A DNA stretch of 64,000 nt from the NCBI GenBank assembly GCA_963823335.1, contig CAWGLD010000004.1, forward strand, positions 320,001 to 384,000, given 5' to 3'. This DNA is from an uncultured delta proteobacterium. GTDB lineage: Bacteria > Desulfobacterota > Desulfobacteria > Desulfobacterales > B30-G6. The notes below the pieces were generated by a model. The model ran no database searches, was not told the DNA's origin, and saw nothing but the letters and a program-made list of their open reading frames with translations. Of this stretch, positions 3,488 to 9,408 are shown in pieces (positions within the stretch are counted from its first letter, which is position 1; each line of letters starts with the position of its first letter). The position numbers were made by a program, and so were the translations under genes.

Positions 3488-5938
3488 ATGACGCCTATGA
3501 GTAAAGAAATAAACACAATCGAAGTCGCCGTGGCTTTGCCAGTCCAGGGAACATATTCGTATGCCGTTCCTGATAACCTCGCAGTCATGATTGCTCCGGG
3601 AAAAAGAATCATCGTTCCGTTTGGCCGCCGTCGGATTACCGGATATGTTCTGGGGACACCACACGAAGTCTGTGATCTCAGCCTGAAAAAAGTTCTGGAC
3701 GTACTGGATGACCATCCGCTTTTTCCAGAGTCCATGGTTCCCTTTTTCAAATGGATTTCGGAATACTACATGTATCCCATCGGACAGGTCATTATGAATG
3801 CGTTACCGGGTGGATTGACCACTGCTGAGCAGAACGTTTTTACCATCACTCAGCAGGGATGCCGCTTTCTCGAACAGGGCATTATGACCATTACGGAAGA
3901 AAAAATTCTCAACACCTTGAAAACCGAATCCCTGAATTTGAAGGCGCTTGAAAAGAAAATCCGCCGACCCCTGCCAACAGCCATAGCTCTTGCCATGCTG
4001 GACAGGGGATGGATTTGCCAGAGAAAGAAGCTCAAGAAAGGCCAAACACAATCGAAAATAGAAAAATTTGTATCCCTGAGCAATAATAATCGTGACGAAA
4101 CAAAACTATCTGAAACGCGAAAAAAAATAATCGGCTACCTTAAAAATGAGCATGAAGTCTCATTGAAAGAACTCAAGAAAATCGTACCGACGGCGCCCCA
4201 GATCATAAAAGCCATGGCATCCTCCGGGCAGGTCAGGCTGGACCTGAAGCAGGTCTATCGTGACCCGTTCGGGGAACCTGTAAAGAGAGAAACACCGCCA
4301 GTCTTGACCCTTGAACAGAAACAGATCGTTTCACAAGTTCAAGAAGCCATGGGAAAAACATTTGCCCCATTTCTTCTTGTGGGTGTCACCGGTAGCGGCA
4401 AAACAGAGATCTATCTCCAGCTTGCGCTGGAAACCCTCAACAAAGGCCGTTCCGTCATCATCCTGGTTCCCGAAATTGCCCTTATTTCTCAAATGGAAAG
4501 ACGTTTTCGTTCGCGGTTCGGCGATCAGATAGCAATTCTTCATAGCGGACTGTCCCCTGGAGAACGATACGACCAGTGGTTGAAGCTTGCCAGAGGTGAG
4601 ATCACTATCGCCATAGGTGCACGCTCTGCCATATTCGCACCCGTCAAAAATATCGGTCTTATCGTCGTTGATGAAGAGCATGATGCTTCCTACAAACAGG
4701 AAACAAAATTATGTTACAATGCCAGAGATATCGCCATTGTCAGGGCAAAACAGCATAACGCAGTGGCGCTTCTTGGGTCGGCAACCCCTTCCATCCAATC
4801 TTATCACAATGCAATGAACGGAAAATATACTCAGGTCTCCCTCACCGAGCGTGTCATGAACCGCCAGCTTCCTGACATCACCGTTGTCGATTTGTGCGCC
4901 ATGAGAAACCAGCGTGGGTACCGACGTTACTTTTCGAAAGAACTCCTTCTGGGTCTGGGGAACACCCTGAATCGCAATGAGCAGGCCATTTTATTTCTCA
5001 ACCGCCGGGGATTTGCAAGTCTACCGATATGTGGCGCCTGCGGGAAGCCCCTGCAATGCAAAAATTGCGATATCTCCCTGACATATCACCAGCAATCCAA
5101 TGCCTATCGTTGCCACTACTGCGGTTTCTCCACGGCAGGCGGTACAAGTTGTCCTTCCTGCGGTATCGCCGACATCCGCCATTTAGGATTTGGCACCGAA
5201 AAGATCGAAGCAATCGTCAAGGAACTCTTCCCGGATAAAAATATCGCCAGAATGGACCGGGACACCGTCGCTCATAAAGGGTCTGTCCTTAGAATTCTCA
5301 AGGGCTTGAACGACGGTACCATCGATGTCCTCATCGGCACACAAATGGTAGCCAAAGGCCACGATTACCCGAATATCACACTTGTAGGGATTATCTGTGC
5401 CGACCTTTCACTCAGTTTTCCGGATTTCAGGGCTGGTGAACAAACCTTTCAACTCCTCGCTCAGGTGAGCGGGCGCGCCGGTAGAGGGGAGATACCCGGA
5501 AGTGTAATACTCCAGACTTACAACCCGGAACATTTCAGTATTCTATGTGCCAAGCAACAGGATGTGCAACAGTTCTACGACCAGGAAATCACCTTTCGAA
5601 AAGCCCTGAATTATCCACCGTTTTCTCGAATGATTCAGATCATCCTTTCCGGTCACGACAAGACCCGGGTCCATCAACACGCACAGGCCCTTGGAACAGC
5701 CTGTAACACACTATTCAGAAAAAACAAAAAATTCAGGGAAACCATCGTGATGATGGGTCCCATAGAAGCCCCCTATGCCAAAATAGCCTCCAGATACCGA
5801 TGGCAGATTCTGTTCAAAGGCAATCAGACCGGCTTGCTTCATCAGTATGTCCGCGAGCTGATATTCCTGAATCCTCCCCTGTTGAACAAACAGCATGTCA
5901 AGATCACCATCGATATAGATCCTGTTTTCATGATGTAA
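3488..5938 (+). CDS. priA: Primosomal protein N' (replication restart helicase)
   Basis: GVTGSGKTEIY, VDEEHD, SATPS, two Cys4 zinc-knuckle pairs, GTQMVAKGHD, QVSGRAGR. Confidence 0.97.
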   Translation: MTPMSKEINTIEVAVALPVQGTYSYAVPDNLAVMIAPGKRIIVPFGRRRITGYVLGTPHEVCDLSLKKVLDVLDDHPLFPESMVPFFKWISEYYMYPIGQVIMNALPGGLTTAEQNVFTITQQGCRFLEQGIMTITEEKILNTLKTESLNLKALEKKIRRPLPTAIALAMLDRGWICQRKKLKKGQTQSKIEKFVSLSNNNRDETKLSETRKKIIGYLKNEHEVSLKELKKIVPTAPQIIKAMASSGQVRLDLKQVYRDPFGEPVKRETPPVLTLEQKQIVSQVQEAMGKTFAPFLLVGVTGSGKTEIYLQLALETLNKGRSVIILVPEIALISQMERRFRSRFGDQIAILHSGLSPGERYDQWLKLARGEITIAIGARSAIFAPVKNIGLIVVDEEHDASYKQETKLCYNARDIAIVRAKQHNAVALLGSATPSIQSYHNAMNGKYTQVSLTERVMNRQLPDITVVDLCAMRNQRGYRRYFSKELLLGLGNTLNRNEQAILFLNRRGFASLPICGACGKPLQCKNCDISLTYHQQSNAYRCHYCGFSTAGGTSCPSCGIADIRHLGFGTEKIEAIVKELFPDKNIARMDRDTVAHKGSVLRILKGLNDGTIDVLIGTQMVAKGHDYPNITLVGIICADLSLSFPDFRAGEQTFQLLAQVSGRAGRGEIPGSVILQTYNPEHFSILCAKQQDVQQFYDQEITFRKALNYPPFSRMIQIILSGHDKTRVHQHAQALGTACNTLFRKNKKFRETIVMMGPIEAPYAKIASRYRWQILFKGNQTGLLHQYVRELIFLNPPLLNKQHVKITIDIDPVFMM

Positions 5939-6068
5939 ATCAGCGACCACCGACACAAGCTGTGATCGCTGATTATCTTGACATTCTGCAGGATGCCGAT
6001 TAGCATTATGCCTTCCTGTAAACAACACCTATCAAGATTATTTATGACAGCCTTTAGGAGATCGAAAC

Positions 6069-6773
6069 ATGAAATATTTATGTGCCTGGATGATTCTTTT
6101 TGTATTGATCCCTTTTTCCGTGTTCGGCCAAAGCACCACCGACTCCGGGGCGCCTTCTCTGCAAGTACCCGAGCCTTCATATCAGTTTGAACCAGTGGTA
6201 AGTGGTCAGGACGTCAACCACGACTATATTGTGTACAACAAGGGGACTGCCGAGCTCATCATTACCAGCGTCAAAACCGGCTGAGGATGCACGGCAACCT
6301 CTTTTACGAGGCAAATCCCTCCCGGTGGAGAGGGAAAAATCACATTGAAACTGGGAACCGGCGGTTACAACGGGAAACATGTAAATAAAACCGCCATCAT
6401 TCATTCCAACGATCCGCTAAATCCAAGTTTCACGCTGACCATCTCCGGTCAGGTTGAGAAATTTGTGGATCTGGAACCAAAATATGTCCGTCTGACCGGG
6501 TATTCAGGGGCACCCATTTCTGTACCGGTATCGATCACACCCACAGCCAAATACCCTTTTAAGATTATCGATGTGACCGCAAGAGGCGGCAACTTGATCA
6601 AGTACACGCTTACAGAGAGAAAATCCGATCAAGTGAGCACATACACACTTCTCATTGAGAATCTTAAAACGGACAAGGGCCGCTACACGGATCTTCTTAC
6701 CTTGACAACGGACAGTCAGATCCAGCCAAGTATCACCATCCGGGTATACGGAAATATTTTGGAATCTGAATAA
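6069..6773 (+). CDS. Exported DUF1573-domain (Ig-like) protein with in-frame TGA at 6282-6284, probable selenocysteine (UGC motif)
   Basis: ORFs 6069..6284 and 6345..6773 share a frame. Read-through gives ...ELIITSVKTG-[TGA]-GCTATSFTRQIPPGGEGKITL...HSNDP, the DUF1573 'xCGCT...IxPG' signature. N-terminal signal peptide. Confidence 0.85.
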
Positions 6774-6846
6774 AATACAGTTGATCCAATTTAAGAGGGT
6801 AAGAATTTCTGTACACCTTGAACCCTTTTTTCTGGCAGGAGTACCT

Positions 6847-7464
6847 ATGTCAAACTACAAAGTGATCGCTTTTGACTGCGACGGTGTGCTTTTTGACACC
6901 GCAGAATCCAACAGGGCTTACTACAACGCCATTCGCAACCAGCTGGACATGCCGGACATGACGGAAGACGAGTTTTATTTTGCCCACATGCATACCGTAA
7001 AGGAGACACTGGCGTACTTGTTCAAAGATCCCGGGGCACTCCAAAAGGCTGAGGCCGTAAAAGCGCAACTGAATTATACGCCGTTTGTAGCAGCCATGAA
7101 GATGGAACCGGCGCTGATACCACTCCTGAAAAAAATACGCCCAGCCTACAAAACAGCCGTTGCCACCAATCGCTCGGATTCAATGCCGACACTTCTCAGG
7201 GAACATGACATTGCACCGTATTTTGATCTTATCGTATCGGCCAGTGATGTTGCCCGGCCAAAGCCACATCCGGACCAGCTCCTGAGGCTTCTCGATTATT
7301 TTAAAGTCTCACCCCATGAGATGCTCTATGTGGGCGACTCCAAAGTTGATGAAGCCGCTGCAAATTCCGCCCAGGTCCCTCTGGCAGCATACGACAACAG
7401 ATCCCTGTCCGCCGAATATCACATCCGCTCCCTCAAGGAAATCGAGGACATACTGGGGCTTTAA
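6847..7464 (+). CDS. HAD-superfamily hydrolase (phosphoglycolate phosphatase-like)
   Basis: FDCDGVLFD, TN, KPHPD and YVGDS motifs; ggag RBS before ATG 6847. Confidence 0.9.
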   Translation: MSNYKVIAFDCDGVLFDTAESNRAYYNAIRNQLDMPDMTEDEFYFAHMHTVKETLAYLFKDPGALQKAEAVKAQLNYTPFVAAMKMEPALIPLLKKIRPAYKTAVATNRSDSMPTLLREHDIAPYFDLIVSASDVARPKPHPDQLLRLLDYFKVSPHEMLYVGDSKVDEAAANSAQVPLAAYDNRSLSAEYHIRSLKEIEDILGL

Positions 7465-7520
7465 CAGGTTCCAAAGGACAAACAATAACCCGCTGTCCGA
7501 AAACGAATGAACATCGAATG

Positions 7521-7700: not shown

Positions 7701-9110
7701 TCAGAGCCAGTGGCGAATCGCATTGGCATAATAGGAGAGCAGGTTCATGTCTTCGGATGTGGCTTTGAACCGATCGTCAATCGATTTGATCATGCGCCGC
7801 AACAGCATCAAATCCATTGCATCTGCGATGGCATGCACCCGGGTACTCCGAGGCGACTCAAAAATAGGGGCGCCCTTGTCCTTCAGCCTGTCTATGAGTT
7901 GAAAACTCCGTTGCTCCACTTCGAGGAGGTCCATCTCGATGTCCATATTTTCCACAAAAACAGTCGACACCAGAGATATGGGCAGGATCGGAATGACATC
8001 CGCAACGGTCTGCATGAGTCGGCGACACAGTTTTTCGATTTCAGGAAACCGCCGGGAGCGGTCCAGCCTCTTGAAATCGACATCCTCGTCCCGGCAGTAT
8101 GCTTTGATGGACAGAGGGGTCCCAAAATTGACGCAGGCATATCCATACCGTCGCCAGCGGCTGAGAATCATCAGCAGCAGACTGCGTAGAATAAAGGTGC
8201 CCGTCGTCCAACAGACAAACCACCAGCTTCTTTTTTCAGCCCCCGGCCTCAGTGCACGTATAAGGCTCCGGTCTTCAATGGTTCTGTCATAATTGATTCC
8301 AACGGGGATAAAAATAATATCCCGATCGGTGGACAGGTCAAATTGACGCAGCATATAATCTACCAGGCCGAGCTTGGGATTCTGGAGGCTCCCGTCTCGG
8401 CTCAGGCCACCCTCCAGAAAAACAGCCTGGCAGACCCCTTCACGGGTGGCCATGTGGATATAGCGTTCCAGCACACAACGGTACAAGGGGTTCCCTGAAT
8501 TCCGGCGCACAAAAAAAGCGCCCATGGCCCGGATCAGCATTTGCAACGGCCAAATCTTGGCCCATTCACCCACGGCATAAGACAGTGTGGTTCGCTCGGC
8601 AGCCAGGAAGGCCACCAGGACATAATCCATATTGGAACGGTGATTCATGACGAATACCACCGTAGAGTTCGGATCAATGGATGCATAGTGTTGTTCTTTG
8701 ACCAGGCCGACTCTGACCCGGTACAACACCCGGGCGATTTTTTTGGCAACCCAATAACCGATTCGAAAATAGAGATACGCATTAAACGACGGGACAATCT
8801 CACGGGCGTATGTCATGGCTTTGTTCTGTACGATCTCCATGGGCATATCGTGGTCCCTGGCAAACTCCTTGACAGCCTCCAGTACACTTGGATCATAGGC
8901 AAGACGATCGATGAGAACTTGTCTCTTGGTGAGTTGAAAGGGACGGATTTCAATGTCTAGACGGGTGCCTATTTCATCGATGACACGATTGATACGGCGA
9001 CGCAGGAACCAGCGGGTACTGGGAATCAGAATCCGGTCAAGAATCGCAACGGTGGCAATCAACACCAGTAACAAAAACACCCAGAGAGATATGGTGATCT
9101 GACCGAACAT
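7701..9110 (-). CDS. Glycerol-3-phosphate acyltransferase (PlsB-like)
   Basis: NHRSNMD (HX4D), GAFFVRR and FLEGGLSRDG motifs; gaggt RBS before ATG 9110. Confidence 0.85.
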   Translation of the reverse strand: MFGQITISLWVFLLLVLIATVAILDRILIPSTRWFLRRRINRVIDEIGTRLDIEIRPFQLTKRQVLIDRLAYDPSVLEAVKEFARDHDMPMEIVQNKAMTYAREIVPSFNAYLYFRIGYWVAKKIARVLYRVRVGLVKEQHYASIDPNSTVVFVMNHRSNMDYVLVAFLAAERTTLSYAVGEWAKIWPLQMLIRAMGAFFVRRNSGNPLYRCVLERYIHMATREGVCQAVFLEGGLSRDGSLQNPKLGLVDYMLRQFDLSTDRDIIFIPVGINYDRTIEDRSLIRALRPGAEKRSWWFVCWTTGTFILRSLLLMILSRWRRYGYACVNFGTPLSIKAYCRDEDVDFKRLDRSRRFPEIEKLCRRLMQTVADVIPILPISLVSTVFVENMDIEMDLLEVEQRSFQLIDRLKDKGAPIFESPRSTRVHAIADAMDLMLLRRMIKSIDDRFKATSEDMNLLSYYANAIRHWL

Positions 9111-9135
9111 AGTGACCTCATACCTTAAGCTCAAA

Positions 9136-9408
9136 TCACTGATTACCGAACCCGTTCCACCCTCCACAGTCAGGACACTGCCAGGTAATGTGATTGCAAG
9201 ACATGCCCCACACATTCTCGTTCATGCATGCCTGGCAGATGGCAAAGCCACACCGACAGGTCCAATGGAACGGGGTCGTAGCATCGCAGCATACACAGGG
9301 GACATCCTTTCTTCGACGAGTCCGGGTCCTTTTAACAGGGCGACGTTTTACAGTGTCTGGAACGTTCAGTCTTATTCCTCCTTGTACAAAATCTATCAGC
9401 ACAAACAA
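9136..9408 (-). CDS. Small Cys-rich putative zinc-finger protein (start uncertain)
   Basis: CVCC..CRC..CQAC..C..CPDC pattern. An aggagg RBS inside the N-terminal part suggests a later start. Confidence 0.7.
   Translation of the reverse strand: MFVLIDFVQGGIRLNVPDTVKRRPVKRTRTRRRKDVPCVCCDATTPFHWTCRCGFAICQACMNENVWGMSCNHITWQCPDCGGWNGFGNQ

Follow-up and report, generated by a model that had tools for sequence, protein, structure and literature searches.

The locus and its neighbours

The window, that is, the whole stretch of 64,000 nucleotides that was analyzed, is part of contig C4, in an assembly of 11 contigs with 93.9% completeness and 4.6% estimated contamination. Within it, positions 6069-6773 of the forward strand form a single reading frame that runs from an ATG to a TAA (6771-6773) and has one internal stop only, the TGA at 6282-6284 (codon 72). 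Under translation table 11 the same stretch is broken into an ORF of 71 amino acids (6069-6284) and an ORF of 142 amino acids (6345-6773) in a shared frame, and inspection of the frame bore out the original prediction that nothing but this TGA separates the two. The read-through product has 234 residues, includes the sequence ...KTG-U-G-C-TATSF... and carries the motif U72-G-C74; U72 and C74 are the sole Cys/Sec residues of the mature protein. The features of the locus are as follows.

5978..6006, + strand: promoter-like site TTGACA-17 nt-TAGCAT, 10/12, about 60 nt 5' of the start codon; a consensus match alone, not functional evidence
6056..6060, + strand: Shine-Dalgarno-like AGGAG, 8 nt 5' of the ATG, read from the sequence
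6069..6773, + strand: complete selenoprotein gene of the OS_HP2 family, with 234 codons and the TAA (frame reading and domain matches)
6069..6128, + strand: predicted signal peptide of about 20 residues, putatively cleaved after ...VFG, with no twin-arginine motif (sequence and N-termini of homologs)
6165..6458, + strand: domain 1, DUF1573/OS_HP2, PapD-like (ASH/MSP) Ig fold, residues 33-130 (HMMs, AlphaFold2 and fold match)
6282..6284, + strand: UGA as Sec codon 72, in a turn between strands 63-70 and 74-79 (column conservation and AlphaFold2 model)
6288..6290, + strand: TGC encoding Cys74, the invariant partner within the U-G-C motif (homolog comparison)
6297..6312, + strand: hairpin A, columns 16-31; here 4 bp (6298-6301/6308-6311) with loop UUUUAC, 5-8 bp in most relatives (folding and covariation)
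6316..6335, + strand: hairpin B, 8 bp with one bulged A and loop GGU (6324-6326), the proposed SelB-binding part (folding and conservation in Sec forms)
6462..6761, + strand: domain 2, a second Ig-like beta sandwich, residues 132-231, with no Pfam match (AlphaFold2 and fold match)
6847..7464, + strand: HAD-family hydrolase gene directly 3' of the selenoprotein gene, a conserved neighbour (locus comparison)

In 29 of the 30 best loci the next gene downstream, in the same orientation, is the HAD-family hydrolase gene, and priA lies upstream in 20 of the 30, several of the remaining loci ending at a contig edge. Many families of the order share the gene arrangement priA-OS_HP2-HAD (3488-7464 in the window; loci L021-L050). 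The linkage pairs a cytoplasmic hydrolase with an exported selenoprotein; the HAD protein reaches no equivalog cut-off, and these neighbours give no functional clue. No terminator-like site was seen between the selenoprotein and HAD genes, and judging from the sequence the two are possibly co-transcribed. Convergent with the HAD gene is an ordinary gene on the reverse strand (7701-9215), encoding a glycerol-3-phosphate acyltransferase-like protein of 504 amino acids (Pfam Acyltransferase and GPAT_C).

Family membership and the decoding of codon 72

The read-through product was searched against curated profile libraries. The NCBIfam model NF041425, "OS_HP2 family (seleno)protein", matched residues 33-130 over its full length (model positions 1-98 of 98) with 133.4 bits against a cut-off of 100, and Pfam DUF1573 (PF07610) matched residues 33-129 with 65.8 bits (E 3.6e-18; gathering threshold 26.1 bits). 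Both matches span codon 72, so the domain does continue past the TGA into a protein of about 234 amino acids, as had been predicted. A third model, PF22544 (the HYDIN/VesB-like Ig family), matched the read-through product with an E-value of 3.3e-10. Members of the family begin their U/C-G-C motif with Sec or Cys, the motif being U72-G73-C74 here, and homologs of the Cys form also pass NF041425. Zhang and Gladyshev introduced OS_HP2 ("Olavius symbiont's hypothetical protein 2") in 2007 as a newly predicted selenoprotein family, first found in marine deltaproteobacterial symbionts (PMC1976440). An ocean-sampling paper of 2008 equates it with pfam07610 and gives its motif as UxC (PMC2398784), and reviews of 2022 and 2026 list it with the motif UGC (PMC9312934, PMC13188914). 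The original prediction had presented the gene as hidden, and that part has to be given up: the gene belongs to a catalogued OS_HP2/DUF1573 U-G-C family for which NCBI provides a "(seleno)protein" model. Since the family has stood on published selenoprotein lists since 2007, the gene was caught correctly and is of an already known kind. For annotation this means that one selenoprotein gene of 234 codons should be called, not two ORFs or a pseudogene, and the curated model for doing so exists.

Homologs were found with a protein query in 192 of 201 genomes of the same order. Among the 150 matches listed from these 201 genomes, 135 contained one TGA, 14 contained none and one contained two; a further 108 matches lie beyond these 150. 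The codon column itself was inspected in 44 loci. In the best 30, the window's own included, codon 72 is TGA in 29 and TGC in one, while 13 matches with no stop have TGC (10), TGT (2) or TCT, a Ser codon (1); the match with two TGAs has one at the codon-72 column, the second being its own stop codon. Scoring the column in this way had been proposed with the original prediction, together with the possibility that the TGA might be confined to one genome; it is present in 28 of the 29 best loci from other genomes. At the level of the phylum, NF041425 matched 122 of 301 genomes at E <=0.001, with TGA and no-stop forms both represented. The family thus occurs in most genomes of the order, yet it has no assigned function.

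Two kinds of variant were also observed. The homolog with Ser (L051, G103:C178:743-1414) has S-G-C in place of U/C-G-C, and its genome also carries a TGA form. Tandem Sec and Cys copies are found at two loci, L035 (G102:C57:8290-9757) and G005:C37:14970-16208, which looks like a selenium-independent backup pair; the Cys copy of G102 has no hairpin A.

Searches of the same assembly revealed a complete selenocysteine machinery. A tRNA-Sec was detected with 75.4 bits and was given the anticodon UCA by ARAGORN, and profile matches were obtained for selB (373 bits), selA (610 bits) and selD (372 bits, with one in-frame TGA), each of the four exceeding its own family cut-off. All four genes whose presence the original prediction had asked about are therefore in the assembly, on contigs other than C4, which is to be read with the 4.6% estimated contamination in mind. 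The genome also contains at least seven other genes that belong to known selenoprotein families, each with one in-frame TGA:

C5:144246-145172: selD
C1:1677470-1679476: fdhA
C1:1610688-1611056: FlpD/MvhD-like gene
C1:952159-952527: FlpD/MvhD-like gene
C1:1683402-1683770: FlpD/MvhD-like gene
C5:443626-443997: FlpD/MvhD-like gene
C1:1849620-1850054: AhpC/TSA-like gene

A total of 46 tRNAs were predicted by ARAGORN in the whole assembly, of which one has the anticodon UCA and is the tRNA-Sec; the sub-threshold matches of the tRNA-Sec model are Ser, Leu, Arg and Trp tRNAs. As a separate observation, the genome has a tRNA-Pyl (anticodon CUA, C2:80111-80184) that adjoins a gene for the PylS C-terminal domain (326.6 bits, cut-off 178), the two together occupying G000:C2:79183-80184.

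Two other fates of the TGA were weighed against selenocysteine. It could be a genuine stop, in a pseudogene, through a sequencing or assembly error, or between two genes, so that only the 71-residue peptide is made, and the two ORFs obtained under table 11 are what such a reading would predict. It is hardly credible when the same TGA is shared by 28 of 29 loci from other genomes at 43-77% protein identity with no decay 3' of the codon, when a domain model crosses the codon and Cys homologs align at its column, and when a TGA-specific RNA structure follows it in a genome with the complete Sec machinery; the joining of the two halves across the TGA by the domain models, taken with the TGA in those 28 loci, is more than chance. 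Read-through without selenium is also conceivable, with a UGA-reading tRNA supplying Cys or some other standard amino acid. Cys is the obvious substitute in this column, and some bacteria are reported to have Cys tRNAs that resemble tRNA-Sec. Against this stand selA and selD, both present and intact, and the tRNA set, in which the single UCA tRNA among 46 is typed as tRNA-Sec (an assembly that is 94% complete could miss a tRNA). Since this lone UCA tRNA is the tRNA-Sec, the alternative of Cys insertion, which had been raised with the original prediction, finds no support and is very improbable. The TGA at codon 72 is, with near certainty, a selenocysteine codon in the gene of an exported two-domain protein. 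The wider reading, of an intact OS_HP2/DUF1573 selenoprotein gene whose UGA72 is decoded by the genome's own SelA, SelB, SelC and SelD under the direction of an mRNA structure and whose product is exported, is very probable.

RNA structure downstream of the UGA

For the RNA analysis, columns were numbered from the U of the UGA (column 1). The two hairpins that had been predicted at 6298-6311 and 6316-6335 are indeed found there. Hairpin A pairs columns 16-20 with 27-31 and at most 14-21 with 26-33, and hairpin B pairs columns 35-42 with 46-54 with one bulge and a GGY loop, being built from the codons of the conserved peptide I-P-P-G-G-E-G-K. Among 28 distinct Sec sequences, pair 17-30 of hairpin A is UA in 14, CG in nine and UG in five, pair 18-29 is CG in 24, UA in three and UG in one, and pair 20-27 is CG in 27 and UA in one; none of these three pairs is broken in any sequence, and each shows compensatory changes. 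The covariation score was higher than in all 500 shuffles and in every slid register. Hairpin B is highly conserved and shows one-sided changes only, with no double compensatory change in any one fixed register.

Both hairpins are specific to the Sec forms and are lost or weakened in the 14 Cys/Ser forms. The mean folding energy of hairpin A is -8.2 kcal/mol in Sec forms (n=30) versus -1.4 in Cys/Ser forms (n=14), and the corresponding values for hairpin B are -10.6 and -5.1 kcal/mol, while the peptide I-P-P-G-G-x-G-K is kept in both groups alike. The difference is visible in the choice of synonymous codons: codon 80 ends in G in 29 of 30 Sec forms versus two of 14 non-Sec forms, and Glu88 is encoded by GAG in all 29 Sec forms having Glu there, versus GAG in two and GAA in four of the non-Sec forms. 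Both hairpins recur in each of 20 more distantly related Sec forms from other orders, within columns 12-35 (mean -8.7) and 34-57 (mean -11.0), with quite different stem sequences in hairpin A. The data show selection on both hairpins at the level of the RNA. The covariation proposed as a check on the 3' region is thus present in hairpin A, both hairpins go with the TGA form, and the prediction of an exported DUF1573 protein with UGA in place of the first Cys of C-G-C has been upheld by the codon column, the Sec machinery and covariation.

Hairpin A is weak in the genome studied and in the genus to which it belongs (4 bp, -4.9 kcal/mol), and the minimum-energy fold instead pairs CCUC with a GAGG that overlaps the UGA; by argument and not by measurement, this pairing would have to melt while the ribosome holds the UGA. 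The weak RNAalifold consensus of 29 Sec sequences (-6.2 kcal/mol) likewise proposed a hairpin over columns 2-20, the UGA included, together with 3 bp of hairpin B. We rejected it on two grounds: the 5' arm (G4, G5) does not vary and hence offers no covariation, and the hairpin cannot form with the UGA in the ribosome. An Rfam scan of positions 5500-7500 with E-values up to 10 gave no match to a SECIS family, the only matches being to miRNA, CRISPR-DR and snoRNA models at chance level, far below their gathering scores.

Which of the two hairpins acts as the SECIS element was considered against the bacterial model, in which an apical loop of 3-9 nt with a G in its first two positions sits on an upper stem of 4-16 bp, 16-37 nt from the UGA; some bacterial Sec genes do not fit this model (PMC13188914). 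Loop and stem sizes suit both hairpin B (GGU on 8 bp with a bulge) and hairpin A (a loop of 4-6 nt on 4-8 bp). A loop G is found in hairpin B, where G43 is invariant and G44 is present in at least 90% of sequences, while the loop of hairpin A, here UUUUAC, has no G in its first two positions. The distance from the UGA to the loop is 17-18 nt for hairpin A and 39 nt for hairpin B, so that no single hairpin combines the required distance with the loop G, in agreement with the original remark that neither is a clearly canonical SECIS.

The other Sec genes of the genome offer a reference. Each of the seven examined has a GG-initiated loop on a stem of 5 bp or more, the loop beginning at nt 24, 22, 27, 24, 24, 24 and 24, and such a loop at nt 22-27 from the U of the UGA is a consistent SECIS signature of the organism. 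The OS_HP2 gene has a single GG-initiated loop on a stem of this kind, beginning at nt 43, which places it some 19 nt more distant from the UGA; hairpin A, at 20 nt (columns 14-33), is roughly as long as that offset. From this correspondence between the length of hairpin A and the shift in register we infer a composite SECIS, in which the structure would occupy the 52 nt after UGA72 in two parts. Hairpin A would begin about 12 nt after the UGA and fold away 20 nt of spacer, and hairpin B, whose GGU loop is of the kind shared with the other Sec genes, would then be the SelB-binding stem-loop, brought by the folding of hairpin A to the usual register of about 23 nt. We put forward tentatively, with somewhat less than even confidence, that OS_HP2 genes carry such a composite SECIS as a class of its own, with a SelB-binding GGN loop made from P-P-G-G-E-G codons 39 nt past the UGA, by itself too distant, and a spacer hairpin that restores the register.

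Another arrangement would have hairpin A alone as the SelB-binding SECIS, since its start, like that of the E. coli fdhF element, lies about 11-12 nt behind the UGA, with hairpin B an accessory or a by-product of the P-P-G-G-E-G codons. Hairpin A does have the clearest covariation, its loop lies 17-18 nt from the UGA and so within the range of 16-37 nt, and its structure is kept across orders despite differing stem sequences. This arrangement nevertheless appears unlikely to us, as GG-initiated loops like that of hairpin B are found in all seven other Sec genes examined, and hairpin B is selectively kept in Sec forms through synonymous choices.

The composite SECIS is the one point of this locus that may be new. 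A literature search over article text, covering few subscription journals, found no published bacterial SECIS with two hairpins or a spacer hairpin, nor one of this type for OS_HP2, and the SECIS figure of the 2007 paper (Figure 5) has a legend that names five other families and not OS_HP2 (PMC1976440). If the composite structure is real, a switch from Cys to Sec could recruit a hairpin B that was already half-formed in Cys ancestors (mean -5.1 kcal/mol in the Cys/Ser forms). The two-hairpin structure also provides a testable case of a SECIS fitted into a constrained coding sequence, and it bears on SECIS prediction software that expects one hairpin no more than 37 nt away.

The protein, its probable export and its comparison with known systems

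All homologs start with a K/R-rich stretch followed by a hydrophobic one, resembling a signal peptide. Of five long homologs tested, four (L025, L028, L039 and L042, 355-401 residues) have an OmpA-family, peptidoglycan-associating domain at the N-terminal side, the order being signal peptide, OmpA-family domain and then the OS_HP2 selenoprotein; another homolog, L050, ends in a long low-complexity tail rich in Pro, Lys, Thr and Ala. The signal-peptide-like N-termini and the OmpA-family fusions point to the periplasm or cell envelope, and the Sec-type signal peptide of the window's protein, as read from its sequence, would direct the product to the periplasm and leave about 214 residues once cleaved. 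OS_HP2 is one of few selenoproteins predicted to be exported by the Sec translocon.

The structure was predicted with AlphaFold2 from an alignment of 20 sequences (mean pLDDT 90.5, pTM 0.72); five rows of this alignment end in a spurious C from an included terminal TGA stop, and the first row is unaffected. The model comprises an N-terminal helix (residues 2-18) and a disordered linker, both of low confidence, and two beta sandwiches (residues 30-131 and 132-231), with U72 in the turn between strands 63-70 and 74-79. In the periplasm the product would form two tandem Ig-like domains, with U72-G-C74 on a beta turn of domain 1. His51, Asn57, Gln82 and Asp115 are among the residues that do not vary across the alignment of 20 sequences.

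Two main proposals are made for what the U72-G-C74 centre does. It may be a redox-active selenenylsulfide (U-x-C) centre acting on thiols or disulfides of the envelope, to which we give an even chance. It might instead bind a soft metal ion such as copper, mercury or cadmium in the periplasm with no redox cycling, the main alternative and in our view the less likely of the two: several selenoprotein families of the 2007 study are metal-related (PMC1976440) and His51 is invariant in the 20 aligned sequences, while no metal-handling gene adjoins the OS_HP2 gene in 30 loci, where the neighbours are priA and the HAD hydrolase, and no metal-binding protein is among the top 50 fold matches. The L051 homolog, in which Ser replaces Sec/Cys, counts against the role proposed for the centre. 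The signal peptide, the OmpA-type fusions and the tandem Sec/Cys copies narrow down where OS_HP2 works.

Comparison with known structures gave generic similarities. A sequence search of the PDB with E-values up to 1 returned no match, and the fold searches (Foldseek against pdb and a wide VIA-align search) yielded nothing beyond generic Ig, PapD-like and ASH domains and offered no lead to a function. Domain 1 matches the C-terminal Ig domain of Vibrio VesB (Z 12.2, rmsd 1.9 over 96 residues) and a PapD-like domain of HYDIN (Z 10.9), and domain 2 matches a domain of SbsC (Z 9.8, rmsd 2.5 over 86 residues). The PapD-like/ASH/MSP domains of HYDIN and VesB are structural or interaction domains that have no Sec/Cys centre, and the common fold is uninformative on function. 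The same layout of two Ig domains occurs in PDB 2qsv, a protein of unknown function from Porphyromonas gingivalis (Foldseek E 5e-9, Z 10.8, 199/220 residues aligned), which the PDB sequence search did not retrieve; its identity is 12%, and the large rmsd of 12.8 suggests that its domains are oriented differently.

Within its own family, the gene of the window is an ordinary member that differs in nothing essential from other OS_HP2 genes and has Sec first in U-G-C as they do. Its RNA resembles the consensus bacterial SECIS and that of E. coli fdhF in having, within the coding sequence after the UGA, a stem-loop with a small loop that starts with GG or GU and a bulged stem nucleotide; the fdhA of this genome has the loop GGUCU at nt 22-26. 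It departs from that consensus in the position of the GG-loop hairpin, at 39 nt beyond the range of 16-37 nt, and in the covarying second hairpin that occupies the spacer.
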